NCBI GenBank assembly: GCA_047617785.1
Contig: JBLGBK010000012.1
Location: 1-17,929, forward strand
Source: Colwellia polaris
GTDB taxonomy: Archaea; Nanohalarchaeota; Nanosalinia; Nanosalinales; Nanosalinaceae
Length of the DNA: 17,929 nucleotides
Direction of reading: 5' to 3'
Shown here: positions 1 to 17,803 of the stretch, piece by piece
Position numbering within the stretch: the stretch's first letter is position 1
How the letters are laid out: every line of letters starts with the position of its first letter
The notes under the pieces: model-generated
Seen by the model: the letters and a program-made list of their open reading frames with translations, nothing else
Databases searched by the model: none
Told to the model about the DNA's origin: nothing
Made by a program: the position numbers and the translations under genes

Positions 1-7
1 AGGTCTT

Positions 8-82
8 AGCCCCGTCCGGGATTTGAACCCGGGATCTATCCCTTACGAGGGGATCGCTCTAGCCAGACTGAGCCAACGAGGC
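8..82 (-). tRNA. tRNA-Thr (anticodon CGU), intronless, CCA not encoded
   Basis: The reverse complement folds as a cloverleaf: acceptor GCCTCGT/ACGGGGC, D arm GCTC-AGTCTGGCTA-GAGC, anticodon arm ATCCC-CT CGT AA-GGGAT, variable region AGATC, T arm CCGGG-TTCAAAT-CCCGG, discriminator T at position 8. Confidence 0.97.
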
Positions 83-142
83 GTGTTTGTGTAGAGAGTT
101 GTTCTGTAGAGTTTTTTATGTCTGCCAGGGGGTGTTACCTGT

Positions 143-150
143 TTTATATA
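143..150 (+). promoter_or_regulatory. TATA box for the DUF2582 gene
   Basis: TTTATATA lies about 40 nt before ATG 191, with an SD-like AGGTG at 177-181. Confidence 0.55.
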
Positions 151-190
151 CTGTTAGCTGTAATTTTTGTAATATAAGGTGTTAATTTGA

Positions 191-388
191 ATGGATGATA
201 GAATTGGAAATTTAGCAGGTGAGGTTTACCGTTTATTGGATGATGGCGGTGAGCACTCTCTTAATAAGGTCTGTAAAGCTGTAAATGCGCCCCGATCTAA
301 AGTGAATATGGCGATCGGGTGGCTTGCTCGTGAGGATAAGCTTGAGTTTGTGGATAAGCAGAGAGGTACTGCGGTACAGCTCAAGTAA
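191..388 (+). CDS. DUF2582-family winged helix-turn-helix small protein
   Basis: 65 aa with the motifs IG.LAG.VY.LL and MAIGWLAREDKL, typical of DUF2582. Confidence 0.85.
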   Translation: MDDRIGNLAGEVYRLLDDGGEHSLNKVCKAVNAPRSKVNMAIGWLAREDKLEFVDKQRGTAVQLK

Positions 389-423
389 AACTGTTTTATT
401 ATTCTCTTCCCTAATTTATCTGT

Positions 424-1380
424 ATGAGTTCTCTTGATTCCGGTGCAAGAACTATTGTCGAACAGTGTCTAAATATCCAAAAAGATGAATCCGTACTCGT
501 TCTTAACGACGGGAATGATGCCGATTTAATAAACACGCTAACACGTTTTCTGCAACAAAATGATTATGACTATACTTTGAAAGAGTATCCGGAACCAGAG
601 AACCATGGTGAAGAGCCACCTCAAGAAATAGCTGAGGCTATGAAAAACTACGATGTTGTGATCGCACCTACACTCAAATCTCTTTCACATACAGAAGCAC
701 GTATTAAGGCCTGTGAATCAGGTAGCCGCGTGGCAACTCTACCAACTATAACTAAAGAGATCTGGAATACTTCTCTCCAGGCCGATTACAAAGAGGTTGA
801 ACGCATAACTAAGAAAGCATATGAGCTACTGGAAGATACTTCTGAGGTCAGGATCAAAACACCTTCAGGAACCGATCTTACATTGGAGGTGAACATCGAG
901 TTTTTCCACAAGGACACAGGTATTATCCAAGAACCAGGCGACTTCGGCAACCTTCCTGCTGGAGAGGCAGACGGCGGAGTCGTAGACGCGAACGGCATGC
1001 TTGTAACCGATCACTTCCCTTTCGCACCGGCAGGAACCAAGGTCGAAATCAAAGATGCTGAAGCGGTATCGGTCGAACATGTAGATGAGGAAGTATCTGA
1101 ATTAGCCGAAGCATTCGAAGAATACGAAGGCGCAAAAAATGTTGCAGAGTTCGGTTTCGGAACCAATCCTAAAGCAACCCTGATCGGAAACGTTCTTCAG
1201 GATGAGAAAGTGCTTGGAACCATTCATGTCGCGTTTGGAGATAACTCTAGCTACATTCCGGAAGAGCATGAAAGGCGTCAGAGCTGTGAAATACACTGGG
1301 ATACCATCTGTGAATCGCCGACTGTCTGGTTCGATGATCAGAAGGTTCTGGACCAAGGCAAACCAGTTTTCCTCGACTAG
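424..1380 (+). CDS. Aminopeptidase, peptidase M29 / AmpS-like (archaeal leucyl aminopeptidase type)
   Basis: Motifs SLSHT.AR, TPSGTDL, GNLPAGE, AEFGFGTNP, DEKVLGTIHVAFGDN and IHWD. TATA-like TTTTATT about 23 nt upstream. Confidence 0.9.
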   Translation: MSSLDSGARTIVEQCLNIQKDESVLVLNDGNDADLINTLTRFLQQNDYDYTLKEYPEPENHGEEPPQEIAEAMKNYDVVIAPTLKSLSHTEARIKACESGSRVATLPTITKEIWNTSLQADYKEVERITKKAYELLEDTSEVRIKTPSGTDLTLEVNIEFFHKDTGIIQEPGDFGNLPAGEADGGVVDANGMLVTDHFPFAPAGTKVEIKDAEAVSVEHVDEEVSELAEAFEEYEGAKNVAEFGFGTNPKATLIGNVLQDEKVLGTIHVAFGDNSSYIPEEHERRQSCEIHWDTICESPTVWFDDQKVLDQGKPVFLD

Positions 1381-1419
1381 ATTTTAAGTACTGGCTTCAA
1401 CAATCATTGCCTTGTATAG

Positions 1420-3114
1420 ATGGGAATATTCGACTCCTCAAATAAAGTAAAGGAGAATCTTTCAGAAGCCATGAAAGAGACCCAGCAAATCTCTGAGTCT
1501 AAAGTAAAGGCTGAAAGCTCCGAATCAGATAAAGAATGGACGCATATGATGGATGCGATCCGTAATCTCAAGTCCCGTCTTAACCAGGTTAAGAAAAACC
1601 AAGAAAGTATAGAAAATAAAAATGAAAAGCTGGAAGATGAGCTTGATTCTGTTGAAGAGGAGTTGGAAGGCATTGATAGAGATGATGAAACTGTTGAACA
1701 GGTAAAAAGACAGTTAAATGAGGTTCAATCTCAGTTCCGTGAAATGGGAGGTATTGAGAACCTTGTACAGCTAAAAGAAGATACTGAAAGCGTTCTTGAA
1801 GAAGTTGAAGAAATGGATCATGAAGTTGAAGTCGAAGCTGATAGAGTAGAAGATATCTACCAGGAGCTTCAGGAGAAAGAAGAAGCTATCGATCAAGTTG
1901 TTCAGGACCAGGAAGAGCTACGCGAGGACTTTAGCCAGCTACTTGACCGGTTTGATGACTTATCAATGGAGTATAGCGAACTTCCATCATCTGAAGAGTT
2001 CAGCAACGTAATGAATCAGCTTAAGTCGCAAAAAAAGGTTATAGAATCTGTTGTACCAGCTCTGGAATCGGCTTTCGACGATATTGAAGATATTGAAGAA
2101 AAATCCATAGTTACACTCGAGGATCTCGGCCAGCTTGAAGATCGTATTGAGAGCAAGAAGGTCGATAAAGAACAGTTTGAACAGCTGGAAAAAGAGGTTT
2201 CCGTAGTAGAAGATACTACTTCTGAAAATGATAATAAGATCAAATCTTTGAACGAGAAGATTTCTCGTATAAACAATAAGACCCAGCAGATTGAGGAATT
2301 GAGAGAAGATATCACCGAGCTTGAAGACGAGGTTAACGATAATATAGAAGATCTTAGAGAGGAAAGACAGGAAGATATTGATGGTCTGCGCAGCGACTTT
2401 GACACGCTTCTAGAGGATTACCCCGATAGAGAAGAAGTACACGATCTCGAAGAAGATATTCATTTTGTTGTTGAAGAGCAAAAGGAGCTTGAATCAGAGC
2501 TCTCTGACTCTCTGAAGGATTTGGAGAAAAAGGTTCATAACCTGGCTATTGAGGAGAAAGTTGATCGGTCTCAGTTCAAACAGCGTATACAGGAAATTAG
2601 AGGAGATCAACTGGTCGAAATCGGTCAATTACGTAAAGAACTGAATAAGATTGAGTTAGATGAAAAGATAGATAAGTCCGAGCTGGAGGAAGAGATGACA
2701 GATCTCAAACAGGAGATTGAAGTACAGCTCCGCTTATCTGAGAATGAGTTACGTGAACGACATGCAACCAAATCAGAGCTTCAGGGCCTATGGGATGCGA
2801 TAGATGTAGTTGAGGAAAAAATAAAGACAGAGAGGGCTGCTGGCGAAGAAAATTCTCGCGCTGTTGAACAGGTTAGAGAGGACCTTGAAAGCTTTGAGGA
2901 AGGTGTTGACTCAAGACTATCTCATAAAGCCGAACGCAATCAGATTCAAAATGTTAAGAACAATCTTGCCAGCTTAGAGAGCAGAGTAAATCAGCTGGAG
3001 GATAGGCATGACGAAGAGTTTGTAACAGAGTCCGAGTTCCATAGCTTCAAGGAGAAGGTCGAACAGATATCCGATCTGCTTCTGAAGGTTACCAAGAAAG
3101 TGACTTCTAAGTAA
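1420..3114 (+). CDS. Long acidic coiled-coil protein of unknown function
   Basis: 564 aa, E/D/K/L/Q-rich heptad pattern throughout and very few Pro. No Walker motifs and no transmembrane helix seen. Confidence 0.85.
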   Translation: MGIFDSSNKVKENLSEAMKETQQISESKVKAESSESDKEWTHMMDAIRNLKSRLNQVKKNQESIENKNEKLEDELDSVEEELEGIDRDDETVEQVKRQLNEVQSQFREMGGIENLVQLKEDTESVLEEVEEMDHEVEVEADRVEDIYQELQEKEEAIDQVVQDQEELREDFSQLLDRFDDLSMEYSELPSSEEFSNVMNQLKSQKKVIESVVPALESAFDDIEDIEEKSIVTLEDLGQLEDRIESKKVDKEQFEQLEKEVSVVEDTTSENDNKIKSLNEKISRINNKTQQIEELREDITELEDEVNDNIEDLREERQEDIDGLRSDFDTLLEDYPDREEVHDLEEDIHFVVEEQKELESELSDSLKDLEKKVHNLAIEEKVDRSQFKQRIQEIRGDQLVEIGQLRKELNKIELDEKIDKSELEEEMTDLKQEIEVQLRLSENELRERHATKSELQGLWDAIDVVEEKIKTERAAGEENSRAVEQVREDLESFEEGVDSRLSHKAERNQIQNVKNNLASLESRVNQLEDRHDEEFVTESEFHSFKEKVEQISDLLLKVTKKVTSK

Positions 3115-3118
3115 GAAG

Positions 3119-3126
3119 TTTTAAAA
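3119..3126 (+). promoter_or_regulatory. TATA box for the leader ORF / DUF5794-like transcript
   Basis: TTTTAAAA ends 24 nt before ATG 3151, the same spacing seen at other apparently leaderless genes in this window. Confidence 0.55.
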
Positions 3127-3150
3127 TATTGGATCTGTATTAACAGTTCT

Positions 3151-3261
3151 ATGCGCGGAAAAGTACATTCAGGAAATGTTTCTGTATCAACCGGTGCTAT
3201 GCCGTGCATGAATTTCTCTAAGTCCAAGTTTAATTTTGCTAATATCTTTACCTGGAAGTAA
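3151..3261 (+). CDS. Putative leader peptide (36 aa uORF): MRGKVHSGNVSVSTGAMPCMNFSKSKFNFANIFTWK
   Basis: ATG sits at leaderless distance from a TATA box, and the frame is open to TAA 3259-3261. The ORF is below the ORF-track size cutoff. Translation is not proven. Confidence 0.45.
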   Translation: MRGKVHSGNVSVSTGAMPCMNFSKSKFNFANIFTWK

Positions 3262-3332
3262 GTTATCTCTTTCCAGGACGCCTTGACCATTAAAATCGGT
3301 CTCTCTACGTATTTCTCCTTTCAAGGTGTTCC
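3251..3332 (+). promoter_or_regulatory. Structured 5' leader: stop-codon hairpin and anti-Shine-Dalgarno helix
   Basis: CCTGGAA (3251-3257) pairs with TTCCAGG (3271-3277). GGACGCCTTGA (3276-3286) pairs with TCAAGGTGTTC (3321-3331) over 11 bp with 2 G-U pairs, covering SD AGGTG 3324-3328. Confidence 0.5.
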
Positions 3333-3335
3333 AAA

Positions 3336-4034
3336 ATAGATATTCTACCTGACTCTGGCGCCCAACGGCTTCTGTTCGTCCTCGCACTACCGTTGCTAGA
3401 TGGTGTGTTCGCCACCTTGCTTGTGACTGGGGCAGTACAGACATTCTCCGAGATCCTTACAGTAGCATTAACTATATTTACAGGAGCTGGAGCGCTAGCT
3501 ATACTTTATTCTGAATCAGGAAGCAGAGAGGAGGCGCAGAAAATGGTTAAACAGGTGGCTCCTTATCTTGTATCAGGAGCATTAATTGTGGCGTTAGTAG
3601 CGCCGGTATTCGAACAAATCTTCTATCTATCACGGCTTCGGTACGCTGCAGCAATTGCAGTATTGGTTATAGCCCTGAAAATATCAGAAGTAGATATAGC
3701 AGAGAAATTCACAGTTCCAAGCATCATAGTTACAGGAATGGCTCTTTCCTTGAAGCAGCCAGCCTCTATAGCCATAACCTCGGGTTATGTTGCTCCAGCT
3801 CTACTAACTGTGGCTACAGCGCTGCTTGTACTATACGCAGCAACCTACCTTGATCCGGAAAGACTCAACTTGGATATTATACGGGGTGCGGGAACATTGG
3901 TTCTTATATTGGTTAGTTTATCTCTCCTAGGGTTGAACATACCTTCGCATCTAAGTTTGGCGGTTCTTTCTACGGCCGTGGCTGCTGCGTCAAGACCTGA
4001 AGTTCAGAACTGGGCGCTTCTTACCTCGAAATAA
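3336..4034 (+). CDS. DUF5794-like multi-pass membrane protein (haloarchaeal family), probable ATA start
   Basis: Hydrophobic multi-TM protein. GAQRLLFVLALPLLDGVF resembles the haloarchaeal DUF5794 N-terminus as I recall it (GATKLLATVM.LPLVDGIF), so the similarity extends upstream of the track's TTG 3393. There is an in-frame stop at 3291-3293 and no ATG or GTG before 3393. ATA 3336 lies 7 nt after AGGTG. Confidence 0.7.
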   Translation: MDILPDSGAQRLLFVLALPLLDGVFATLLVTGAVQTFSEILTVALTIFTGAGALAILYSESGSREEAQKMVKQVAPYLVSGALIVALVAPVFEQIFYLSRLRYAAAIAVLVIALKISEVDIAEKFTVPSIIVTGMALSLKQPASIAITSGYVAPALLTVATALLVLYAATYLDPERLNLDIIRGAGTLVLILVSLSLLGLNIPSHLSLAVLSTAVAAASRPEVQNWALLTSK

Positions 4035-4399
4035 GTGTCAGAGCTGTTCATAAGCTTTGCAACCAATCTTTCTCTTAGAGGTCTGAAGACAAGTGCTATT
4101 CCTGCTAGATCTGTTATCAACCCGGGAGTAAGTAGGAAGATTCCGGCAAATACAATCATAGCGCCTTCAACCATGTTACGTGATGCTTCTCCCGCAGTCA
4201 CTGACTGCTGTAGTTTCATCAGTATATGGATGCCTTCTCTTCGGATCAGATGAGCTCCTATTATACCTGTTAGTAGTATTACGCCTATTGTCTGTACAAA
4301 TCCAATGCTTTCTGCCACTACAAACAGCAGGTAGAAATCTATGAACGGCAATGCAAGCAGCAGAACTAGCAAATATCCTATCATTTTTCTCCCGTACAC
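4004..4399 (-). CDS. fxsA: FxsA-family membrane protein
   Basis: Motifs LP.ID.YLL..V...IG...T...ILLTG.IG..L.RREG and AGIFLLTPGLITDLAG. Start is GTG 4399 or ATG 4384. The 3' end overlaps the DUF5794-like gene by 31 nt. Confidence 0.9.
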   Translation of the reverse strand: MYGRKMIGYLLVLLLALPFIDFYLLFVVAESIGFVQTIGVILLTGIIGAHLIRREGIHILMKLQQSVTAGEASRNMVEGAMIVFAGIFLLTPGLITDLAGIALVFRPLRERLVAKLMNSSDTYFEVRSAQF

Positions 4400-4419
4400 A
4401 TTATTGACGTAGGTTAGCG

Positions 4420-4426
4420 TTTAAAA
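4420..4426. promoter_or_regulatory. Probable shared bidirectional TATA box (fxsA / peptidase operon)
   Basis: TTTAAAA lies 20 nt from GTG 4399 (minus strand) and 22 nt from ATG 4449 (plus strand), in a 49 nt gap. Confidence 0.55.
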
Positions 4427-4448
4427 TCTGAGTGCCGCTTCTATATAC

Positions 4449-5489
4449 ATGAAACAACTTCTGAAAAAACTGGTTAACACCTCCGGAGTATCGGGAAACG
4501 AACACCGAATTAGAGAAACAATCCGAAAAGAAATAGCGGACCATGCTGATGAGATTGAAGAAGACAACATGGGCAATCTCATCGCACGAAAGAACCCGGA
4601 AGCAGATAAAACACTTCTTCTCGATGCTCACATGGACCAAATCGGTCTAGCAGTTAGAAGAATCGATGAAGAAGGATTTCTACGTATATCAAGCGTAGGA
4701 GGGATATATCCTGTAAGTGTGGCGAATCAGAGAGTGAATATTCACACGTCGGAAGGCGAAGATATCAAGGGGGTTATCGGTATGAGGCCGGCCCACGTCG
4801 TACAAGGAGAGAACCAAGGCTTGCCAGATATGAACAAGATATTTGTTGACATCGGGGCAGAAGACAAACAGGACGTACTTGATAAAGGAATTAGAGTAGG
4901 CGATTACATAAGCTATGACACTGGTTTTGAAGAACTTGCAAATGACTATGTAACAGGCCCTGCGCTTGACAACCGCGTAGGATGTACATTGCTTATAGAT
5001 GCATTCAAGAATTTCGATGAGAGCTATGAAATGATTGCTCTATTCTCTTCACAGGAAGAAATAGGTGGTAAAGGTGTAAAAACCTCTGTATTTGGTCTTG
5101 AACCTGATGTAGCAGTTTCACTTGAGGTTTCGCAGGCTGGAGACGTACCTCACATCGATGTAGATGAATCAGATGAGTACACAGGTCAAGGGTTCGGTAT
5201 AACTATGATTGAAGAAGGAGGCCGTGCAATAACAGTTCCGGAACCTGTTAGGAACTGGCTGATAGATACAGCAGAAGAAAAAGATTATAATTACAAAAGG
5301 AAGCTGTACGATAGAGGTAAGACAAATGCAGCACAGATAAGATTTCTGAAAGAGGGTATTCCAGCAGGAGTGGTCGTTATTCCGACAAGGCATATTCACT
5401 CGCCGGTTGAAACAGTAAAGATGTCGGATATAGAAAAGACAACGGAGTATGTGTCAGATATTTTCGATACATTTCCGCAGTATTTCTAG
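4449..5489 (+). CDS. M42-family (TET/FrvX-like) metallo-aminopeptidase
   Basis: Motifs GVSGNE, DNMGNL, DAHMDQIG, ALDNRVG, QEEIG and HIHSPVE. Confidence 0.93.
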   Translation: MKQLLKKLVNTSGVSGNEHRIRETIRKEIADHADEIEEDNMGNLIARKNPEADKTLLLDAHMDQIGLAVRRIDEEGFLRISSVGGIYPVSVANQRVNIHTSEGEDIKGVIGMRPAHVVQGENQGLPDMNKIFVDIGAEDKQDVLDKGIRVGDYISYDTGFEELANDYVTGPALDNRVGCTLLIDAFKNFDESYEMIALFSSQEEIGGKGVKTSVFGLEPDVAVSLEVSQAGDVPHIDVDESDEYTGQGFGITMIEEGGRAITVPEPVRNWLIDTAEEKDYNYKRKLYDRGKTNAAQIRFLKEGIPAGVVVIPTRHIHSPVETVKMSDIEKTTEYVSDIFDTFPQYF

Positions 5490-5501
5490 GAGGTTTTCAG
5501 A

Positions 5502-7268
5502 ATGGTAAAAGAACGAGAAGAAATAGAACAGCAGTACAAATGGGATTTAACGGAAATCTTCGAAAGCGAGGAAGAGTGGAGGGAGAAACGCAGCCAGGTT
5601 GAAGAAGAACTCGATGAGATAGAAGAGTACAAAGGCCAACTAACAAACTCGGCGCAAACTCTGCTCAACGGGTTAAAGGCAAAAGACAACCTGATGCGCG
5701 ATATTTCCAATCTAGCAGCATATGCGAGGATGAAGACGCATGAGGACATGAGCGATCAGAAGGCACAGGAGTTGAAGTCAAAGGCCGACTCGCTTCAGAG
5801 CCAGGCTGCTTCAAAAGTTGGTTTCTACCAGCCAGAGATCAAGAAACTATCCAGAGAACAGTTTGAAAGTTATATAGAAGAGGAAGAAGAGCTTGAAGAG
5901 TACAGACACTACATCCGGAACATTCTGCGCCTTCATAACCATATTCTTGATACTGAAACCGAGTCGATGCTGAATGATCTTGGAGAAATTCTTTCTACAC
6001 CTCAAGAAACCTATTCAATGCTTACTAACGCAGATCTAACCTTTCCGACTGTTGAAAGAGAGGGTGAGGAGGTACAGATCACTAATGCTAACTTCACGAA
6101 GCTGTTGAAGGATGAAGACAGAGATTTCAGGAAAGAAGTGTATAATGGTTTCTATGAGCGTATAGGCCAGTTTAGGAACAGTATTACTACGATGCTAGAT
6201 AAGGAAATCCGGAAGAATGTGAAGATGTCGCGTATCAGGAACTACGATACAGCCCGGAAAGCATCTCTCAAGCAGGATAACATTCCTATATCAGTCTACG
6301 ATAATCTCGTGGATACGGTTGAAGACAATCTTGATGTTCTACACAGACATCTTGAGCTTAAGAAACAGGTTCAGGATCTTGATGAACTGGAGATGCATGA
6401 CATATACATGCCGATAACCGAAAAAGAGCAACCAGAAATCGAATATGAGGAAGCAAAACAGCATGTTCTGGAAGCATTACAGCCTCTGGGCGAAGAATAT
6501 GTGGATAAGGCGGAAGAATTCCTCGAAAATCGGTGGATAGATGTTTACGAGAACAAAGGTAAGCGAAGCGGAGCGTACAGCGGAGGAACATATGATACGC
6601 CATCATACATCCTGCTGAACTATCAGGAAGATGTGAATTCAATGTACACTCTTGCGCACGAGCTTGGCCACTCTCTTCACTCTGAACTTGCAAATCAAGA
6701 GCAGGGTTACTTGGATAGTCAGTACAAGATCTTCGTTGCGGAAATTGCAAGCACGTTGAACGAAATTCTACTTACACGTCATCTGCTAGAGAAAGGTAAG
6801 TATAAGGAGCATGCGCTTGACTACGTTCTAGAGGGTTTCCGGAACACACTTTTCCGGCAAACGCTGTTTGCAGACTTTGAAAGACAGACTCATGAACGTG
6901 TTGAGAACGGCGATCCATTAACTGCGGATATACTCGGCGAGATGTATGGTGAGAAGAAGAAGGAATATTACAAACCGGTTCAGATGGACGAGGAAATTAA
7001 GAAGGAATGGATGCGCATACCGCATTTCTACTATGATTTCTATGTCTTCCAGTACTCTACAGGTTTGTCGGCCGCGCACGCAATAATCGATGAAGTGATT
7101 GAAGAAGGCAACGCCGAAGACTATCTGGATATGCTTAGAAAAGGAGGCAGTGATTATCCTTTAGAAGTGCTTGAAGATCTAGGGGTCGATATGCGCAAAC
7201 CTGAGGCAGTAGAGAAGGCTATTGAAAGATATGAGAGACGTGTAGAAGCTATGGAAGAAGCAATTTAG
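5502..7268 (+). CDS. pepF: Oligoendopeptidase F (peptidase M3B)
   Basis: Motifs YKWDL, RWIDVYENKGKRSGAYS, TLAHELGHSLH, FVAEIAST and WMRIPHFY. SD GGAGG at 5489-5493. Confidence 0.95.
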   Translation: MVKEREEIEQQYKWDLTEIFESEEEWREKRSQVEEELDEIEEYKGQLTNSAQTLLNGLKAKDNLMRDISNLAAYARMKTHEDMSDQKAQELKSKADSLQSQAASKVGFYQPEIKKLSREQFESYIEEEEELEEYRHYIRNILRLHNHILDTETESMLNDLGEILSTPQETYSMLTNADLTFPTVEREGEEVQITNANFTKLLKDEDRDFRKEVYNGFYERIGQFRNSITTMLDKEIRKNVKMSRIRNYDTARKASLKQDNIPISVYDNLVDTVEDNLDVLHRHLELKKQVQDLDELEMHDIYMPITEKEQPEIEYEEAKQHVLEALQPLGEEYVDKAEEFLENRWIDVYENKGKRSGAYSGGTYDTPSYILLNYQEDVNSMYTLAHELGHSLHSELANQEQGYLDSQYKIFVAEIASTLNEILLTRHLLEKGKYKEHALDYVLEGFRNTLFRQTLFADFERQTHERVENGDPLTADILGEMYGEKKKEYYKPVQMDEEIKKEWMRIPHFYYDFYVFQYSTGLSAAHAIIDEVIEEGNAEDYLDMLRKGGSDYPLEVLEDLGVDMRKPEAVEKAIERYERRVEAMEEAI

Positions 7269-7283
7269 AGGTGTAAAATTATT

Positions 7284-8777
7284 ATGTCAGAAAAATTTGA
7301 ACAACTTGAAGAAGAGCTTAAAATGCTTCAAAACCTTGAGTATATTGAAGACCTTCTTTCCTGGGATAAAGAGGTTATGATGCCTGAGGGAGGTCAGAAA
7401 GCCCGTGTACATCAGCAATCAACAGTTTCTAAGCTTCAACGCCGTATTATTACAGGTGACAAGTTAGATGGTCTTTTAAAGGATATTGAACGTTCTGAGC
7501 TTAACCAACGCCAGGAAGCTCTGCTTAGAGAGGTTGAAAAAGATAAGAGGAAAGCAGAGGCTGTTCCTGAGGAGTTGATGGAGAGGATATCAGAGACCTC
7601 GTCTGAAGGTATCGAAGTATGGCGCGAAGCTCGTGAGGAGAATGACTTCGAGTCGTTTGCTGAAATCCTTGGAGAAATTGTAGGGTTGTATAGAGAATAT
7701 GCTAACCATATTAATCCTGATTCAGAGCCTTATAAGGTGCTCTTCAAGGACTACGAGCCATTTCTCAAGTTTGAATCTATGGAGGAGATAATGGAAGAGG
7801 TAAAAACGAACCTTGTGCCTTTGATTGAGGACATACATGACTCTAATGTGGATATAAACAAAGGATTTTTTGAAGGCGGGTTTGACGAAGAAACGCAGAA
7901 AAAACTATGCAAGAATATCGCGCGGGATATAGGTCTGCCAGAAAGTTCTAATCGTGTAGACGTTTCAACACACCCGTTTACGTCAGGAAACACTTTTGAT
8001 ACGCGTATAACTACTCGTTACAATGCGAATGACTTGTCTGAAAGTGTTTTAGTTACTATGCATGAAGGAGGTCATGCGCTCTACCAGCAAGACCTTCCGG
8101 AAGATGAATATAATTCTCCTATAGGTGCTTCAAGAGAGTTAGGAGTCCACGAGTCTCAGTCACGACTATGGGAGAATCATGTAGGACGTTCAAAAGTATT
8201 CTGGAAATACATGCTTCCAAAACTTGAGGAAAACTTCTCTGAAAGTATTGGAAAAGATACTCTGGAGGCGTGCTACGAATCAATTAACCATGTAAGAGAA
8301 GACAATACCGTCCGTTTCAACGCTGATGAACTTACTTACCATCTCCATATATTGATCCGATTTGAGATAGAAAGAAAATTAATTAACGGAGAAATCGAAG
8401 TTGAAGAGCTTCCGGAAATCTGGAATAAAAAATATGAGAAGTATCTGGGTGTTACGCCAGATAACCATAAAGAAGGTGTTATGCAGGATATTCACTGGGC
8501 AGGAGGCAATTTCGGGTACTTCCCAACATACACTCTAGGTAGTGTTCTCTCTGCACAATTATTTGATGCGGCCGAGAGCGAGATTGACAACCTAGATCAA
8601 AAAATTGAGGAAGGTAACTTCGAGCCGTTGCGTGACTGGCTACGTGAGAATGTCCACCAGCACGGAAAGTTATACGAAACCGAGGAGCTTGTAAAGAAGG
8701 CCACTGGCGAGAAACCTACTCCGGAACCTTTCCTTGACTATGTCGAGGAGAAGTATTCAGAACTCTACAACCTCTAA
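7284..8777 (+). CDS. Carboxypeptidase Taq family (peptidase M32)
   Basis: Motifs LLSWD, HPF, DTRITTRY, HEGGHALY, HESQSRLWEN, ADELTY.LH, QDIHW and GYFPTY.LG. SD GAGGTG at 7268-7273. Confidence 0.96.
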   Translation: MSEKFEQLEEELKMLQNLEYIEDLLSWDKEVMMPEGGQKARVHQQSTVSKLQRRIITGDKLDGLLKDIERSELNQRQEALLREVEKDKRKAEAVPEELMERISETSSEGIEVWREAREENDFESFAEILGEIVGLYREYANHINPDSEPYKVLFKDYEPFLKFESMEEIMEEVKTNLVPLIEDIHDSNVDINKGFFEGGFDEETQKKLCKNIARDIGLPESSNRVDVSTHPFTSGNTFDTRITTRYNANDLSESVLVTMHEGGHALYQQDLPEDEYNSPIGASRELGVHESQSRLWENHVGRSKVFWKYMLPKLEENFSESIGKDTLEACYESINHVREDNTVRFNADELTYHLHILIRFEIERKLINGEIEVEELPEIWNKKYEKYLGVTPDNHKEGVMQDIHWAGGNFGYFPTYTLGSVLSAQLFDAAESEIDNLDQKIEEGNFEPLRDWLRENVHQHGKLYETEELVKKATGEKPTPEPFLDYVEEKYSELYNL

Positions 8778-9108
8778 CTATCTTCTTCTATCTCTTTTTC
8801 TTTCGCTACAACCTGCAGACTGCATGTGAAGATCTGCTCGACCACTTATTTCTACTGTTTCATTATAATATGAGTTCTGGGCGGCTGAATATGGCCGCGT
8901 TGATCGATCCAGATTTTTCTATCTGGAAGAATGTGTGTTGGTTGTATCTACTGAGGTTGCTTACAGCGCCTTCGACTGCTATATATTTGCCGAGCATCAA
9001 CTTATCTGCTTCTTCTGGAGGTACATCTTCGGGTTCTGCAGAGAAGGTTGTTGTACTGAGCAAGATAAGCTCTGTTACTGTGGCTAAAACAAGTGTCTTG
9101 TCCTTCAG
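8774..9108 (-). pseudogene. Frameshifted membrane-anchored OB-fold nucleic-acid-binding protein
   Basis: Frame 1 reads LKDKTLVLATVTELILLS...GKYIAVEGAV...FFQIEKSGSINAAIF..ELIL*. After a shift near 8865 it continues NETVEISGRADLH. After a second shift near 8820 it continues SLQVVAKEKEIEEDS* (TAG 8774-8776). Together these complete an OB fold. Confidence 0.75.
8781..8804 (+). terminator. Pyrimidine/T-rich archaeal terminator-like tract after the peptidase operon
   Basis: TCTTCTTCTATCTCTTTTTCTTTC directly follows the M32 stop codon. Confidence 0.4.
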
Positions 9109-9641
9109 AACTTGATTTCTTCCAGAACTCTGTACTCAGCTCCTTCCTCGCTGAGCCTTGATTCATATACTTTCACGGAACTGACTTTGATTTGGCCGAA
9201 GAAGTAGTCCTTGTATTCCCGCATTCCTTTCCTAAGCTTCTTCTTTTTCTTTCTCGTCAGGTTATCGACGCGGAACAATGTAATATGTGGATGAAACTCG
9301 TGGCTATTATCGGAAACCAAGTCGTGACTGCTTGCCTCTTCGTGCAATTTCTGAAACTCTTCAGCTTCTACTCCGGCCCAAACTACGCGTATATGATCAT
9401 TCGAAGGGAAAGCACCGACCCCTTCGATATCAGAGTTGAAGCTGTTAAGATCAACTTGTTTCAGATGTTTGATAAGGTGTTGAACTTCTTCTGCGTCTAA
9501 ATCTTGGAAGAATTCGAGCGTAATATGCATTTTTTCCGGAGGTATTGTCCGGAAGTTCATGTCGAGTGTTTGCTGGATGTACTGCAATTCATCCAGAATC
9601 TCGTCGTTTTCGATTTCTACGGCGGTGAATACCCGCGTCAT
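9105..9641 (-). CDS. thpR: RNA 2',3'-cyclic phosphodiesterase (2H family, ThpR/LigT)
   Basis: N-terminal R.F.A, two HxT motifs (MHITLEF, PHITLFR), GVGAFP...RVVWAG and YESRL. Confidence 0.93.
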   Translation of the reverse strand: MTRVFTAVEIENDEILDELQYIQQTLDMNFRTIPPEKMHITLEFFQDLDAEEVQHLIKHLKQVDLNSFNSDIEGVGAFPSNDHIRVVWAGVEAEEFQKLHEEASSHDLVSDNSHEFHPHITLFRVDNLTRKKKKKLRKGMREYKDYFFGQIKVSSVKVYESRLSEEGAEYRVLEEIKF

Positions 9642-9704
9642 TGTTTACATTTTTAACCGTTCGATACGTATAAACTATTAATACAGAAGGTGTAACAATT
9701 AATT

Positions 9705-9965
9705 ATGGCTGAAAAACCACGGGCGACGGAACTGACTGGGAAAACTATAGTATCTGAAGAACATGGTAAGAAGTTCGGAACTGTAGAAGATATCTCTTAT
9801 GTATCAGATACTGGCGAACTCATGAATATTCTAATCACTGATACTACAAAGCACTTAACCGATGCTAACCTACAGCAGGACCGTAAAGGACGAAGCATTA
9901 TACCTTTCTCCTCTGTAAGGAGTATTGGAGACTTCGTGATTGTCTCAGAAGACGAGATTGTTTAG
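9705..9965 (+). CDS. PRC-barrel protein, CdpB-like (archaeal cell-division PRC family)
   Basis: Pattern L.GK.IVS..GK.FG.VEDI....TGEL..I...IPFSSVRSIGDFVIV. Confidence 0.85.
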   Translation: MAEKPRATELTGKTIVSEEHGKKFGTVEDISYVSDTGELMNILITDTTKHLTDANLQQDRKGRSIIPFSSVRSIGDFVIVSEDEIV

Positions 9966-9995
9966 AGAAACTCTCTTTTCTGTTAATCGCAAGTC

Positions 9996-10730
9996 TTATT
10001 CATTTCTACTTGATATTTTTTCGGCTTCTTCTTTCAAAATTTTACTTGTCTTCTTGAGTACTGTTGATCTAAAACGATAGTCCTCTCGAAGCTCGTCGCA
10101 CCATTCTGCTGCGTGTAAAAGCAGGGATTCTTGGAGATGGGATACTTCTTCTGACATTTCTCCGTCTTTGCCGGTGAAATATCTCAGGCTTTCTTCTCTA
10201 GCTTTCTCAGCGAATTCATCGCTGATTTCAATTCCTGCTTCTTTTGCTGCATAGAAATACCACTCTAGGTCGAGTATGGCGACTGTAAGAAGGTATTGAT
10301 CTACTATTCCGTTTGTATGCTCTGTTGGTTTTTTATCGTCTATCTTAAGATCTTCTGGTCTGCTGTAGTCGGGATAATCTAGGTTTTTCAGGCTGCCATA
10401 TTCTTTGGCGGTATCTTTACCCAGCTTGTGGTTGTTAGAGTCCATCAGGAAGAAAATTTTGTCGATAGGGAAGGATAGCCATTCCTCTAGTAGTTGGTAC
10501 CATTCTGTATCTCCAATAAAAACTGCAGAAATTAGCTTCTTGGCGTCAGGGCTTATTTCTTCATCTTCAGAGTTGAAACTTTGGAGAGCTTCTTTCTTAT
10601 TTTTCTTAATCTCTCCAGTCTCTAGGTCGATATCTTCAGAGACTTTCAGAATAAAGTCTGCATCAGCCTCAAAGTATCGTTTAGGATTTTCCTCTATAAC
10701 CTTGCCTGCCCACAAGCGATATAGGCTCAT
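9996..10730 (-). CDS. Hypothetical acidic, mostly helical protein (244 aa)
   Basis: Long ORF with host-like acidic composition. No motif recognised. Confidence 0.75.
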   Translation of the reverse strand: MSLYRLWAGKVIEENPKRYFEADADFILKVSEDIDLETGEIKKNKKEALQSFNSEDEEISPDAKKLISAVFIGDTEWYQLLEEWLSFPIDKIFFLMDSNNHKLGKDTAKEYGSLKNLDYPDYSRPEDLKIDDKKPTEHTNGIVDQYLLTVAILDLEWYFYAAKEAGIEISDEFAEKAREESLRYFTGKDGEMSEEVSHLQESLLLHAAEWCDELREDYRFRSTVLKKTSKILKEEAEKISSRNE

Positions 10731-10781
10731 CTCTTGGTATTGTTAAGGCGGACTTATTAGGGTTGGGAAATAGAGGAGGTG

Positions 10782-11738
10782 TTAAGCATCCTCTATTCCT
10801 TTATCTGTGATCTCGAAGACGGCTTCACCTTCCGGCAGGTAAGGGCTGTCTTCTAGTCGTGCTACGCGCGTGTCTTTCTTTCCTTTTCTGAGGTATACGA
10901 TTACTGCGCAGTTGTGTGCGACAATATTCCCTCCAATTGCTTTTGTAGGGTCTCCAAACATTTGGTCTGGATTGTCCATAACTTGGTTGGTAACTACTAC
11001 TGCTACATTGTATGTGTTGGCTACTTTCAGCAGTGTTGACATGTGCTTGTTTAGCTTCTGTTGTCTGTTTGCTAGTTCTCCTCGTCCTACGTACTCTGAT
11101 CTGAAATGAGCCATTAGTGAGTCAACCACTATTAGTCCGATGTCGTTATCGTTACAGATTTGCTTGGCCTTTTCAGCTAGAAGCATTTGGTGGTCGGAGT
11201 TCATGGCTCTTGCTACGAAGATGTTGTCAAGTACTTCTTCAGGATCCATTCCTTGACTTTCTGCCATTTCTTCGACTCTTTCTGGTGTGAAAGTGTCTTC
11301 TGTGTCTATGTAGATCGCTCCTTTGTCCATGCCGCCTTCTTCTTCGCTTTTCTGTACGTTTACGGCTAGGTGATGTCCAATCTGTGTTTTTCCTGCGGAG
11401 AATTCTCCGTAGATCTCTGTGATTGATTGTGTTTCGATTCCGCCTCCCAGGATGTCGTTGAAATCTGGGCTTGCGGTTGCAATCTTCTTCATCTCTTTCC
11501 GCTGTTCCATCTTTTCGGTTCCTGTTTCAAATCCTCCGACATCTGCGAGATCTTTTGCGGAGTTAACGATGCTTTCGGCTGCTGATTCACCGATTCCATC
11601 GACTTTGCCCGATAGTTCGCCTGCTTTCATGTTGGCGATCTCCATCAGGTTGCTAAGTCCTTCGTCCTTTAGTCTTTCTGCTGTTTTTCCTCCTACGCCG
11701 TCTAAGTCTTCTAGTTCTATGTCGTCTTTATCTGCCAT
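10782..11738 (-). CDS. radA: DNA repair and recombination protein RadA
   Basis: N-terminal HhH (LEDLDGVG), GFETG polymerisation motif, Walker A GEFSAGKT, YIDTEDTF, Walker B LIVVDS and GRGELANRQQKL. No intein. SD GGAGG at 11750-11754. Confidence 0.97.
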   Translation of the reverse strand: MADKDDIELEDLDGVGGKTAERLKDEGLSNLMEIANMKAGELSGKVDGIGESAAESIVNSAKDLADVGGFETGTEKMEQRKEMKKIATASPDFNDILGGGIETQSITEIYGEFSAGKTQIGHHLAVNVQKSEEEGGMDKGAIYIDTEDTFTPERVEEMAESQGMDPEEVLDNIFVARAMNSDHQMLLAEKAKQICNDNDIGLIVVDSLMAHFRSEYVGRGELANRQQKLNKHMSTLLKVANTYNVAVVVTNQVMDNPDQMFGDPTKAIGGNIVAHNCAVIVYLRKGKKDTRVARLEDSPYLPEGEAVFEITDKGIEDA

Positions 11739-11758
11739 TGTGTTGTTCCCCTCCTAAA

Positions 11759-12766
11759 TTATGCTTCTAATACTTCCAGTAGCTGTTCGATGTTTTCTTC
11801 GATGTCGATCGTTTCTATGTCGTTGACAAGTATTTCAAGACTGTCGAAATAGTCATTGTGTCGTGTGCGTCCTTCTACTGCAATTTCTTTTCCTATTGCT
11901 TCTTCTACTCCTTCTTCGACTGCTTCCATGTCTCCGTCTTTCTCCTCTTCTTCGCTCATTCCAAGGATTTCTCGTGCGTTGTCTCCGAAGAATACTACGC
12001 GCATGTTTCCTGTTCCATCGTCTATTACGCCGGAGACAGCTAGTCGGTGATCAGGATCTTCAACTTCTTTTCCTTCGTCGGTTTCGAGATCTCCGTCGTC
12101 GTTCTCTCTTACTGTGTCGCCTGTTTCAGGGTCGACTCGGTAGAAAGGATTGTTTGTGTACATCGCCATTAGCATTCCTTTGACTTTGTACGAGCTGTTT
12201 TCTGATCTTACTTCTCGAATATTGCTTTCTGTTGTTGTGTTGGCTTTTCTTGTTTCTTCGTCAATTTCTGGTACTTCGTCTTCGTCAGCCATTGCGACCT
12301 GCGCGTCGTCTCCTAGACGGATTTCTGCGTTTCCGTCGTCGTCTTCTATTGTGTATGCGCCGCCGATTTCGATTGCGTCTTCTTCCTGTATTTTGTCGGT
12401 TATCTGTGTTTGTTCGTCCCAGAGAGTCATTCTGATTGTTCCGGTGTCGTCTCCTAGGACTACGTTTTGAACTTTTCCGTCTTCCTCATCGTCGTCTCTT
12501 TCGAATGTGTTGAGGTCGGAGATTCGTACTACGCGGGCTTTGAAGTTTACTTTCCGCATGTCTGGTACGATATTATCTATTTTCAGGTCTTCGTTGGCGG
12601 TTTCTGAGATTTGTACGCCGTGTTCTTTAGCGACTAGGTGTGCTGCTCCTTCTTCGCTGACCAGTCCGGAGAACTCCTCCATTTTTTCTTCTACTTTCTC
12701 CTTTACGTCGTCTTCCTCAAGTTCTGATTCCTCGACTATGAGGGCGATTATTTTGTCCATCTTCAT
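11759..12766 (-). CDS. rpa: Replication protein A (archaeal RPA: N-terminal helical domain plus two OB folds)
   Basis: Motifs GLVSEEGAA.LVA.E.GV, GKV.NVVLGDDTGTIR.TLW and IDDGTG.MRVVFF. Ends 20 nt upstream of radA on the same strand. Confidence 0.9.
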   Translation of the reverse strand: MKMDKIIALIVEESELEEDDVKEKVEEKMEEFSGLVSEEGAAHLVAKEHGVQISETANEDLKIDNIVPDMRKVNFKARVVRISDLNTFERDDDEEDGKVQNVVLGDDTGTIRMTLWDEQTQITDKIQEEDAIEIGGAYTIEDDDGNAEIRLGDDAQVAMADEDEVPEIDEETRKANTTTESNIREVRSENSSYKVKGMLMAMYTNNPFYRVDPETGDTVRENDDGDLETDEGKEVEDPDHRLAVSGVIDDGTGNMRVVFFGDNAREILGMSEEEEKDGDMEAVEEGVEEAIGKEIAVEGRTRHNDYFDSLEILVNDIETIDIEENIEQLLEVLEA

Positions 12767-12787
12767 AGTTAATTGAATTATATGGAA

Positions 12788-12813
12788 ACCTTAAATCGGT
12801 GATGATTTAGGGT
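12788..12813. promoter_or_regulatory. Inverted repeat overlapping the rpa-radA TATA box
   Basis: ACCTTAAATC-N6-GATTTAGGGT (9/10 arm match). Minus-strand TTTAAG is about 23 nt before the rpa ATG. Confidence 0.5.
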
Positions 12814-12847
12814 GTTAGAAGTTGGTTATTGCGTGTTTAGATATGTG

Positions 12848-12867
12848 TAAAATAGAAAAGAAGAGAA
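12848..12867 (-). terminator. T-rich terminator-like tract after the histone gene
   Basis: The minus strand reads TTCTCTTCTTTTCTATTTTA directly after the histone stop codon. Confidence 0.45.
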
Positions 12868-13065
12868 TTATTGAAGAGCGTCTTTGATGTCTTCTTTTCG
12901 GACTGTCTTCCGGCCATCTTCTTTTGCGATTGCGATTGCTTCTTCTGCGACATCTCCTGCAAATGTTTCAAGTACTTCGCCTAGAAGGTCGGCTGCGTCT
13001 TCTGCTACTCTCTTGTTTCCTTCATCTTTGATCATGTCCTTCATCTTTGTGTTAGAGAATTCCAT
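12868..13065 (-). CDS. Archaeal histone (HMf-fold singlet, 65 aa)
   Basis: From ATG 13065 (MEFSNTKM...) it aligns without gaps to HMfB, keeping G16, R19-V20 and G-R-K-T-x-x-x-E-D-I. Confidence 0.93.
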   Translation of the reverse strand: MEFSNTKMKDMIKDEGNKRVAEDAADLLGEVLETFAGDVAEEAIAIAKEDGRKTVRKEDIKDALQ

Positions 13066-13192
13066 TGTTGCTTCACAGACAGTAAAGTTTCCATAAACGC
13101 ATAAAAAGGGCACCTTATCTCGGTTTCAACCCTAGACGTTAAGTGTATCAAAACCTGTGTTGTATTGTTAGAGGGGAGGAGGAAAATTACAG

Positions 13193-13459
13193 GTGTCAGA
13201 ACCACTTAGAGAGCTTTTCGTGCGTGAAAAGCCGGTAAGACTTCTTATAGAAATAAACAATCCGCGTACTGAGAACTATGCCTCGGAATTATCTAAATCT
13301 GTTGACTGTACATATTCCCACGCTGTACGTGTGATTCAACGGATGGAGAAGAATGGTCTGGTTGAGACAGAGGAGAAAGGAAGGAAGAAAAACATCTTCC
13401 TGACTGATAAAGGTACGAGGATAGCTAAGAGACTTAGTGACCTTCTTTCTGAGTTCTAA
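13193..13459 (+). CDS. Winged-helix (MarR-like) DNA-binding regulator
   Basis: Pattern YASELSKSVDCTYSH..R.I..MEKNGLV....KGR.K...LTDKG. GTG start with GGAGGAGG at 13175-13182. Confidence 0.88.
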   Translation: MSEPLRELFVREKPVRLLIEINNPRTENYASELSKSVDCTYSHAVRVIQRMEKNGLVETEEKGRKKNIFLTDKGTRIAKRLSDLLSEF

Positions 13460-13483
13460 AAATTTATTGAGGTATCTGTTTCT

Positions 13484-14218
13484 CTATATTGCTGCTTTCA
13501 GATAAGGTATTGAGTACATTATTGCAACACCTATTGAAAACATGATTAGGTGCAGATCCCATCGGTCTTCGGTCTTGAACTCTGGTAGAAGGTCGCTTCC
13601 GGCTATAAATACGAAGTTTCCAACTACTAGAGGGAGCAGAATGGGCACGGTTGATGCAGATAATTGAGATAGTCCGAGGACAAGTCCTGCACCTAGGAAC
13701 ATGAATAAGCTGATTCCTATGTTTACGCCTAGGGCTTTCAGCTGTGAGAATCCTCCTTCGACCATGACACCGAAGTCGCCGAGTTCTTTCGGAATCTTGT
13801 GTGCGATGATCGCTATTGTTGCGGCTATTCCTGCAGATGTTGATGCTAGGAAGCTGGTAGCTATCAGTATTCCATCGAGTATGTTGTGTACGCTATCTCC
13901 TGCTGCTAGAACGTATGGTAGTGGTTCTTTGTGTCTTCCTGTATGGTGGCAGTGCCAGTGAACTATTCTTTCTAGGAAGAATGATCCGATCATTCCTGCG
14001 ATGATGAGCAGACCTGTTTCGCGTCCATAGCTGTATTCGTTTGCTAGTCTGAATACAAGGTGTATGAATACTCCTCCGAATATGGTTCCTGCTGCGAGAG
14101 ATATCAGGAAGGGGGTCAGTTTCTCGAAATCTCTGTCTGATATGAATAGAAAGAATGCGCCGATTGCAGAGAATAATGCGGTTATTCCTAGTGCGATTAA
14201 TGTTTGGTGTAGGCTCAT
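13484..14218 (-). CDS. ZIP-family divalent metal transporter
   Basis: About 8 TM segments, with SLAAG....G..FIHL, a His-rich loop (HWHCHH), TM4 HNILDG, TM5 HKIPKELGDF and FIAGSDLLPE. ATG 14218 is preferred over the track's TTG 14227. Confidence 0.92.
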   Translation of the reverse strand: MSLHQTLIALGITALFSAIGAFFLFISDRDFEKLTPFLISLAAGTIFGGVFIHLVFRLANEYSYGRETGLLIIAGMIGSFFLERIVHWHCHHTGRHKEPLPYVLAAGDSVHNILDGILIATSFLASTSAGIAATIAIIAHKIPKELGDFGVMVEGGFSQLKALGVNIGISLFMFLGAGLVLGLSQLSASTVPILLPLVVGNFVFIAGSDLLPEFKTEDRWDLHLIMFSIGVAIMYSIPYLKAAI

Positions 14219-14230
14219 GCACAACAAAAC

Positions 14231-14262
14231 GGTTAATAACTTTTTAAGTAATGCTATTAATC
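14231..14262. promoter_or_regulatory. NikR-type operator around a shared bidirectional TATA box
   Basis: TTAATA (14233-14238)-N16-TATTAA (14255-14260). Extended arms GGTTAATAAC/GCTATTAATC match 8/10. TTTTTAAG (14241-14248) lies in the spacer, about 22 nt from each ATG. Confidence 0.7.
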
Positions 14263-14269
14263 AGGTGTT

Positions 14270-14656: not shown

Positions 14657-14686
14657 GAAATTTTTCTTAATGGCTTATTTGATCGT

Positions 14687-15307: not shown

Positions 15308-15375
15308 AACTATCAAAGATCAACAATAATTTTTGAATATGCTGATTTAAAGAATCAAGACTACAATTATACCTT

Positions 15376-15753: not shown

Positions 15754-15771
15754 ACACTCTATTTTCGAAAA

Positions 15772-16725: not shown

Positions 16726-16734
16726 TTCTAATAC

Positions 16735-17223: not shown

Positions 17224-17472
17224 ATGTCTACTTCAACTTCCCAAGCTAAAAAATCTGGTTTTCAACCCTCTCAGAACTCACATCATCTCTATGAGTGTTC
17301 GTTCTTCATGAACACTATGTTGTTAGTAAATAACGAACATTCAAATGTTTTTAAATACTTTTGTTTTGTTTCTGAAGTGATAACGCTTCTTGAATGATTG
17401 TTTGGATTTAATGAACAACCCGGGTTGTAGCTTGGAGCCGTGAAAATTAAGTCAGAATAGATTTAATGATAT

Positions 17473-17745: not shown

Positions 17746-17803
17746 TTATCGCTTGCCGACAAATTTTTATGTTTTGTAAGTGACAACTAATTCTGATCTA
17801 TTT

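Follow-up and report, generated by a model that had tools for sequence, protein, structure and literature searches.

Background

Leader-peptide and RNA-switch regulation is textbook biology in bacteria. In the bacterial ermC/cat attenuators, a short leader open reading frame (ORF) is translated, the ribosome-binding site (RBS) or start of the main gene is masked, a mutually exclusive helix includes codons of the leader ORF, and the position of the ribosome decides the outcome. Here, we describe a leader of approximately 190 nt, conserved over more than 20 genera, which lies upstream of a gene for a DUF5794 membrane protein in a 17,929-nt stretch of DNA from Colwellia polaris (GTDB lineage Archaea; Nanohalarchaeota; Nanosalinia; Nanosalinales; Nanosalinaceae; assembly GCA_047617785.1, contig JBLGBK010000012.1, positions 1 to 17,929), hereafter the window. 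The leader combines a conserved upstream ORF (uORF), covarying RNA helices, an overlap between these helices, and an exclusive linkage to DUF5794, and it is a likely but unproven archaeal candidate for a type of translation switch whose workings have so far been resolved only in bacteria.

The element resembles the ermC/cat attenuators in that a short upstream ORF is kept open (44 of 44 leaders) and the RBS or start lies within a helix, with 11 bp over the Shine-Dalgarno (SD) sequence in the window and 10 bp over the AUG in other genera. As for a mutually exclusive alternative helix of the ermC/cat type, the stop hairpin and the masking helix have CCAG in common in other genera but only GG in the window, where the two coexist in the predicted fold. 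It differs in being archaeal with a uORF that looks leaderless, in having the uORF stop codon in a hairpin loop, in masking usually the AUG and codons 2 to 4 instead of the SD, and in its peptide, which is unrelated and weakly constrained and for which no inducer is known.

Other described systems share single traits with the element. In the excerpted report on pepNL-pepN of E. coli (PMC11890864), a small ORF for a 14-aa peptide regulates the downstream gene, with arrest at its stop codon, a UGA read through by Trp-tRNA, and the SD-masking stem is, according to the authors, seemingly unaffected by the arrest. As far as that excerpt describes the bacterial system, predicted stem-loops lie around the small-ORF stop and around the SD/start of the main gene in both cases, but the 2 helices overlap in the archaeal element. 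In the leaderless polycysteine uORF attenuators of mycobacteria, the first cistron controls the operonic genes via ribosomes on the codons of 1 amino acid (excerpt of bioRxiv 10.1101/834739). The first ORF looks leaderless here as well, with Phe making up 18% of the last 18 residues, whereas, unlike the mycobacterial system as outlined there, the element is archaeal, is without tandem runs of 1 codon, and has conserved RNA helices as a prominent component. Set beside pheL-like amino-acid attenuators, this Phe content comes with both Phe codons in use and no long tandem runs. Termination-reinitiation coupling, in which translation of an upstream ORF promotes that of the next, is reported for Haloferax and bacteria in the excerpts of PMC6728339 and PMC10666635, at overlaps or very short distances according to the latter. 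In contrast, the uORF stop here lies 33-91 nt before the main start, which is beyond such overlaps or very short distances, and a structural unmasking step would be needed instead.

Ribosome profiling of Haloferax volcanii yielded small ORFs in 5' untranslated regions (UTRs) that were called "reminiscent of" regulatory uORFs or leader peptide genes (excerpt of PMC10117724), and 27-nt ribosome footprints and abundant leaderless mRNAs were described in Haloferax (excerpt of PMC7261190). These are likewise archaeal uORFs in 5' UTRs, for which the excerpts of the 2 reports give no mechanism or RNA switch. Our literature search found no paper mentioning DUF5794, none on uORFs in nanohaloarchaea, none relevant by title or abstract on riboswitches in Nanohaloarchaeota, and no archaeal attenuator with a worked-out mechanism. 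The initial annotation, a reading of the window's letters that proposed a leader-peptide attenuator here, knew of no prior description in DPANN archaea or haloarchaea, and our searches agree, with neither an Rfam family for the element nor a paper on it found.

The leader in the window

Coordinates refer to the whole window, and the features of the leader and its gene are as follows.

3119-3126, + strand: TATA-like box TTTTAAAA, 24 nt before the ATG at 3151 (from the sequence)
3151-3261, + strand: uORF of 36 codons plus TAA (3259-3261), encoding the peptide MRGKVHSGNVSVSTGAMPCMNFSKSKFNFANIFTWK (ORF list)
3151-3158, + strand: 5' arm of the 5' hairpin (H1), AUGCGCGG, which contains the uORF start codon and pairs with 3202-3209 in the minimum free energy (MFE) fold
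3202-3209, + strand: 3' arm of H1, CCGUGCAU (MFE fold; comparison with congeners)
3241-3247, + strand: alternative partner AAUAUCU within the uORF, which can pair with 3338-3344 (inverted-repeat search)
3251-3257, + strand: 5' arm of the stop hairpin, CCUGGAA, in codons for Thr, Trp, and Lys (inverted-repeat search; MFE fold)
3271-3277, + strand: 3' arm of the stop hairpin, UUCCAGG, with its final GG (3276-3277) common to the anti-SD helix (inverted-repeat search)
3276-3286, + strand: masking (anti-SD) segment GGACGCCUUGA, forming 11 bp with 3321-3331 in the MFE fold
3321-3331, + strand: masked segment UCAAGGUGUUC, which holds the SD AGGUG (3324-3328) and pairs with 3276-3286
3338-3344, + strand: start-region arm AGAUAUU, comprising the last base of the start codon and DUF5794 codons 2 and 3, which pairs with 3241-3247
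3336-4034, + strand: DUF5794 membrane-protein gene, with start position ATA at 3336 and stop TAA at 4032-4034 (homologs, profile match)

The TATA-like box, the uORF, the stop hairpin, and the 11-bp anti-SD helix are thus all present where the initial annotation had placed them. The 13-nt loop of the stop hairpin (CCTGGAA 3251-3257 with TTCCAGG 3271-3277) encloses the uORF stop (3259-3261), which lies 74 nt before 3336. The anti-SD helix includes 2 G-U pairs and has an energy of -16.8 kcal/mol, with a Watson-Crick core of ACGCCTTGA (3278-3286) paired with TCAAGGTGT (3321-3329). The predicted folding energy of the 200-nt leader is -46.6 kcal/mol (z -2.70), a stability matched by 3 of 200 shuffled sequences, and the MFE fold holds the stop hairpin, the anti-SD helix, and H1 (3151-3158 with 3202-3209), within which the uORF AUG is fully paired. 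No tRNA or Rfam family (E <= 1) was identified in the leader gap of the window.

Some details of the earlier description need qualification. A leader of about 185 nt is correct if the gene starts at 3336, the start position of its homologs, but the codon there is ATA. The small competitor stem GACC (3285-3288) with GGTC (3298-3301) occurs in the window but is absent from both congeners. Further, the leader was said to stand out in a window with almost no intergenic DNA, which is overstated, with stretches free of any ORF of at least 90 aa also identified at 12767-13483 (717 nt), 8778-9104 (327 nt), and 9642-9995 (354 nt).

An upstream ORF is conserved ahead of DUF5794

A protein search covered 41 related genomes, with DUF5794 identified in 25 of them at 28 places, and 27 loci were parsed (L numbers below are labels of related loci). 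A uORF of 31-42 codons, ending 33-91 nt before the DUF5794 start, was identified in 24 of these 27, and the 3 loci without one (L018, L027, and L028) are second copies, each from a genome with another copy that bears the leader. Together with 11 further genomes and 9 more, these 24 gave 44 leaders, all of which carry an ATG-initiated uORF of 29-42 codons upstream of DUF5794, including 3 of 3 genomes of the window's genus and all 41 further leaders. The uORF is therefore conserved in relatives, as the attenuator proposal supposed. In other genera, the distance from the uORF stop to the DUF5794 start is 33-56 nt.

Over 35 uORFs, no stop codon was found in the uORF frame versus 72 and 88 in the other 2 sense frames, which had at least 1 stop in 31 and 33 of the 35 leaders, and the mean probability of the uORF frame staying open after dinucleotide shuffling was 0.17. 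The uORFs of the window's genus, of 36, 34, and 35 codons, differ by 3- and 6-nt indels that leave the frame open, and 24 nt at the 3' end of the uORF are identical in the 3 species, with the flanking coding DNA differing.

In 23 of 24 loci, a TATA-like heptamer begins 28-36 nt upstream of the ATG that opens the uORF. Given the distance usual in archaea between TATA box and transcription start site (TSS), the TSS is likely at or a few nt from the uORF AUG, and the uORF would then be leaderless. All 35 leaders scanned for one have an SD-like motif 10-17 nt upstream of the DUF5794 start, which in other genera lies within the loop of the start-masking helix.

Covarying helices and linkage to DUF5794

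The layout of the leader is constant in other genera, with H1, a 5' hairpin over the first 55-65 nt, followed by a Phe/Lys/Asn-rich linker, the stop hairpin (H2), and the helix masking the DUF5794 start (H3). The H2 5' arm consists of Gly-Ala/Thr codons (CUGGGGC, UGGGACC, GGAGCC, GGAACCAA, and others). Counted from the final base of the stop codon, the H2 3' arm begins at -3 to +4 nt in all 32 leaders from other genera and at 9, 14, and 14 nt in the window's genus. H3 in most genera is formed by CCAGGACCAU with AUGGUUCUGG, the first 4 DUF5794 codons, and covers the AUG. In other genera, the H2 3' arm and the H3 5' arm have CCAG in common, and full H2 and full H3 are therefore mutually exclusive.

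Arms taken from the same leader pair more stably than non-cognate arms, with -21.79 versus -16.14 kcal/mol for H1, -13.85 versus -9.95 kcal/mol for H2, and -17.91 versus -15.99 kcal/mol for H3, and energies as low were reached in 0 of 5000 permutations for H1, 0 of 5000 for H2, and 1 of 5000 for H3, counts that overstate significance given the relatedness of the genomes. In alignment A4, which comprises 21 sequences, H2 plus a short H3 paired in 82.8% of cells versus 27-51% with the partner slid, with 7 of 14 pairs changing on both sides, a number reached in 0 of 500 shuffles, and the full 10-bp H3 paired in 90.9% of cells versus 25-47% when slid. RNAalifold recovered H3 and part of H2 unaided. 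Compensated H3 variants were identified in L024 (CCGG with CCGG, altering Leu to Pro) and in L011 (shifted GGCGUGCC with GGCAUGCU). The helices thus covary in relatives, and the anti-SD helix on which the initial annotation had built is conserved, as 8-11 bp over the SD in the window's genus and as an anti-start helix elsewhere. An H1-type hairpin was predicted in 35 of 35 leaders. Masking of the uORF AUG by H1 as a general rule was rejected, as no more than 11 of 35 leaders have at least 2 of the 3 nt paired.

A covariance model of H2 and H3 built in this analysis (R1) matched 43 places in 42 of the 70 genomes of the order, and DUF5794 was directly downstream of 42 of these 43 matches (29 of 30 fetched loci by motif, the thirtieth and 3 more by coordinates, and 9 of 10 by a later check). 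The exception is the weakest match (E 2.9e-4), inside an ftsY-like gene, and the leader is linked exclusively to DUF5794. On named genome records, R1 matched 30 of 38 closer loci and 0 of 22 halobacterial loci; the matched records include a Candidatus Nanohalobium MAG and the strains SG9 and M3_22. No Rfam match at E <= 1 was found in the leaders of 18 nanohaloarchaeal or 19 halobacterial loci.

Constraint on the peptide and on the RNA

Over 17 within-genus pairs, the ratio of nonsynonymous to synonymous differences (pN/pS) of the uORF was 0.19-0.95 (median 0.63), with 0.02-0.46 (median 0.25) for the main gene, and in 16 of 17 pairs pS was lower in the uORF than in the main gene. By these 2 comparisons, the RNA and the open frame are more constrained than the peptide sequence. 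The mean identity of the uORF peptides is 29%, with no invariant residue beyond Met1.

Composition was compared between the last 18 residues of 30 of the 35 peptides (5 near-duplicates dropped) and the proteins of the window. Phe made up 18.0% of these residues (5.0 times its share in window proteins), Trp 3.5% (4.8 times), and Lys 14.4% (2.2 times), with Asp and Glu together at 2.8% versus 21.7% and Tyr at 0% versus 2.9%. The C-terminal half of the window uORF is rich in Phe, Lys, Asn, Thr, and Trp, and Phe codons in the uORFs were TTT in 63 and TTC in 34 cases, with no long tandem codon runs. The absence of Asp and Glu pointed out for the window peptide is real but extends in relatives to the C-terminal part only, where Asp and Glu are scarce, and conservation of the C-terminus applies to its Phe/Trp/Lys-rich composition but not to its sequence. 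No Pfam or NCBIfam match was found for the uORF peptide, and its true relatives among 1.84 billion representative proteins number 4, of 38-68 aa, all from the same leaders.

Stalling specific to the peptide, as first envisaged, finds no support in the median pN/pS of the uORF relative to that of the main gene. Such weak selection argues against a sequence-specific arrest peptide, but not against an unmasking that depends on translation.

The window's genus as a divergent variant

R1 matched 0 of 3 genomes of the window's genus, with the 2 congeners scoring 13.7 and 11.5 bits. The window nevertheless keeps the common layout of TATA box, leaderless-looking uORF, 5' hairpin, stop hairpin, masked initiation site, and DUF5794, and it is a divergent variant of the same design. 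In the 3 species of the genus, H1 has 8-12 bp including the AUG, with 1 G-C to A-U exchange on both sides, the stop hairpin has 8-9 bp, and the anti-SD helix has 8-11 bp (-14.3 to -16.8 kcal/mol). Changes in the anti-SD helix are one-sided only, and the helix is therefore indistinguishable within the genus from plain sequence conservation. The masked element is the SD in this genus versus the AUG in most genera. Further, a bipartite pairing between the uORF 3' end and the start region was identified in 3 of 3 congeners (-9.6 to -10.0 kcal/mol) and may explain the 24 identical nt at the uORF end in the 3 species. A degenerate-pattern scan of a metagenome collection for more sequences of the genus gave 4 places, all unrelated to DUF5794.

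The DUF5794 gene and its start codon

The stop-to-stop frame 3294-4034 matches DUF5794 (PF19107, E 5.2e-15), and the AlphaFold (AF2) model is an all-helical membrane protein with a pLDDT (predicted local distance difference test) score of 79.7, in agreement with the DUF5794-like membrane protein first proposed. Its description as transporter-like is unsupported, with no fold or family match beyond DUF5794: a Foldseek search of the model against the PDB returned nothing at E <= 0.001, the best VIA-align hit was a designed helical protein (Z 9.3, within the range common for helical bundles), and no Atlas neighbor of the protein was named apart from DUF5794. The gene has remained intact in the genus of the window, where its pN/pS of 0.02-0.18 reflects purifying selection.

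Homologs with 77-78% identity begin M(D/I)I..DSGAQRLL and cover the query from residue 1, which places the homologous start at 3336. At this position, the window has ATA, L002 has CTG, and L003 has ATG, and the first canonical in-frame start, TTG at 3393, would remove conserved residues. Near-identical database proteins are annotated from internal starts, at 203-205 aa, which would fit, as indirect evidence, with ATA being fixed. Non-canonical DUF5794 starts were also seen elsewhere, namely CTG in L125 and GTG in 1 whole genus and in L041, and an SD-like word 10-17 nt upstream of the start is retained in every locus with a non-canonical start. Initiation at the DUF5794 start may tolerate near-cognate codons. 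In a MAFFT alignment inspected by eye, the window-genus spacer 3306-3318 (ACGCGTTTCTGA in L002 and L003) aligns with the ATGGTTCTGGA start of other genera; the window's genus may have gained approximately 30 nt that brought another SD and start, in which case the aligned stretch would be a remnant of the former start.

Second DUF5794 copies without the uORF leader were seen at L028, L018, L027, L070, L075, L091, and L096. The copy in the window's own genome (L028, C20:4040-4669) shares 41% identity, lacks a uORF, and is not matched by R1. The leader guards 1 paralog group only.

Proposed mechanism and alternatives

We consider it reasonably likely that the leader exerts cis-acting translational control, with a uORF-dependent unmasking of the DUF5794 start; the TSS, the translation of the uORF, and the direction and signal of the switch in the following account are what we infer from the leader and its conservation. 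Transcription probably begins at the uORF AUG. As long as no ribosome is on the RNA, the segment just downstream of the uORF stop would hold the DUF5794 initiation site in a helix, and the 5' edge of this masking segment doubles as the 3' arm of the stop hairpin. A ribosome translating the uORF to its end would melt the stop hairpin and, once at the stop codon, would cover or displace the masking segment, leaving the DUF5794 start free, and with a ribosome held earlier, in the Phe/Lys/Asn-rich stretch, the masking segment would pair fully and the gene would be off. DUF5794 synthesis would then depend on translation of the uORF and on the positions at which ribosomes linger along it, with Phe-tRNA supply or elongation rate, a termination delay, or control of leaderless initiation by H1 as candidate signals. 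When a 31-nt ribosome footprint was placed on the leader in an occupancy model, the modelled probability of the AUG being unpaired in other genera was 0.37 in free RNA; it was 0.21 when the ribosome stood 6 codons short of the stop and 0.48 when the A site held the stop codon.

Several results count against this account. The modelled unmasking is modest and noisy, though its direction fits, and it is absent in the window's genus and in 1 genus with the masking segment farther from the stop. The window itself fails R1 (best match 3226-3289, 6.8 bits, E 1.5). Its uORF AUG is fully paired in H1, which should hinder leaderless initiation, and its stop hairpin and anti-SD helix overlap by 2 nt only (GG 3276-3277), so both helices coexist in the MFE fold. 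The genomes compared are related and not independent, and in 15 of 17 pairs pN/pS is higher for the uORF than for the main gene, a sign of weak selection on the peptide. The helix over the SD is conserved as proposed; its switching in the window's genus is not supported, given the 2-nt overlap and the absence of modelled unmasking. The earlier interpretation is partly supported overall, with architecture and conservation solid and the stalling mechanism and its signal resting on inference.

If the peptide itself mattered, the Phe/Trp/Lys-rich nascent chain could act in the exit tunnel as an arrest peptide that senses a small molecule or the supply of Phe-tRNA, slows termination or elongation accordingly, and thereby switches on DUF5794; this seems improbable to us, and if true, it would be the first archaeal arrest-peptide attenuator. 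We also doubt that the uORF encodes a working small protein, for example, a basic aromatic peptide at the membrane surface acting with DUF5794 or in trans, with the helices serving only to couple translation. Such a protein would suit the strict linkage to DUF5794 and the conserved C-terminal composition (F 18%, W 3.5%, K 14.4%, and D+E 2.8% vs 21.7%) with both Phe codons used, but it sits poorly with the median pN/pS of 0.63, with a peptide identity of 29% and Met1 as the only invariant residue, and with a search yield of no Pfam/NCBIfam match and 4 relatives in 1.84 billion proteins, all from the same leaders.

The leader might instead be chiefly a structured RNA sensor, such as a riboswitch-like element, a thermometer or salt sensor, or a protein site, with H1 and the other helices answering to a ligand or condition and the ORF accessory to the expression platform. 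The constrained synonymous sites of the uORF (pS lower than in the main gene for 16 of 17 pairs), the free divergence of the N-terminal half of the peptide while H1 covaries, and the long conserved leaders that halobacterial DUF5794 genes also have (see below) all speak for a sensor. We nonetheless hold it to be unlikely in view of an open frame kept in every leader despite divergence (0 stops vs 72 and 88), a stop codon fixed in position relative to the hairpin, the lack of an Rfam family at E <= 1, and the lack of a conserved multi-helix junction or an invariant core resembling a ligand pocket, with mean column identity at 41-47%. For the window species alone, the element could be a decaying relic, with the leader diverged, the AUG lost, and the helices persisting by descent only. 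The start codons ATA in the window and CTG in L002, the failure of R1 in 3 of 3 genomes of the genus, and the ACGYRTTTCT stretch that aligns with the ATGGTTCTGG start of other genera would be expected of a relic; a main gene that is intact and under purifying selection within the genus (pN/pS 0.02-0.18), a uORF 3' end identical over 24 nt in 3 species while the flanking coding DNA differs, and a frame kept through 3- and 6-nt indels along with all helices make decay very improbable.

Halobacterial leaders and neighboring features

In Halobacteria (L097-L118: Halorhabdus, Halovenus, Halostagnicola, and uncultured relatives), a conserved leader of approximately 190-270 nt lies upstream of the DUF5794 ATG, with a TATA-like box 24-30 nt before another, upstream ATG in the 14 loci where a scripted scan detected one. 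This upstream ATG opens a frame of 58-87 codons that spans the leader, and in 20 of 21 loci its stop lies between -6 and +4 nt of the main ATG (the 21st locus, L098, reads like L102, and L112 was left out). These stop positions fit the termination-reinitiation pattern as far as it is described in the excerpts of PMC6728339 and PMC10666635. Other frames in this GC-rich DNA also have few stops, and retention of the ORF there is unproven. A GGCC-ACGGGUGA-GGCC hairpin precedes the halobacterial uORF stop, and by eye the 5' GACUCCGC seems to pair with GCGGAGU approximately 100 nt farther on, in variants that are compensated as well. Run on the halobacterial leaders, RNAalifold gave a 3' hairpin of 4 pairs and nothing else, and no match to Rfam (19 loci) or to R1 (22 loci) was found in them.

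The gene upstream of the leader in the window (1420-3114) encodes an acidic coiled-coil protein of 564 aa. The C-terminal end of this protein also precedes the leader in L005, L006, L007, L011, L019, and L021, and the gene order thus seems conserved across several genera. Downstream, a convergent FxsA-family gene (PF04186, E 4.1e-26; 4004-4399, minus strand) extends 31 nt into the 3' end of the DUF5794 gene. At 13464-13527 on the minus strand, a C/D-box-like stretch matched Rfam weakly (27.4 bits vs a gathering score of 38). The minus-strand ORFs at 2991-3290 and 3187-3444 were rejected as genes, with no Pfam match and, in L002, with stops seen by eye directly upstream of the conserved stretch in the matching minus frame; antisense frames over 35 loci carry 36, 17, and 171 stops.

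Implications

The leader is a compact, testable archaeal candidate, and mutations could be designed after its natural compensatory variants. It is also a first point of entry to the function of DUF5794. With such a guard in genomes below 1.3 Mb, the gene is probably dose-sensitive or condition-specific. A related uORF leader in Halobacteria would point to a regulatory logic shared or exchanged between host and symbiont lineages, and the uORF-dependent control proposed here would mean that DPANN archaea with reduced genomes keep elaborate post-transcriptional control.

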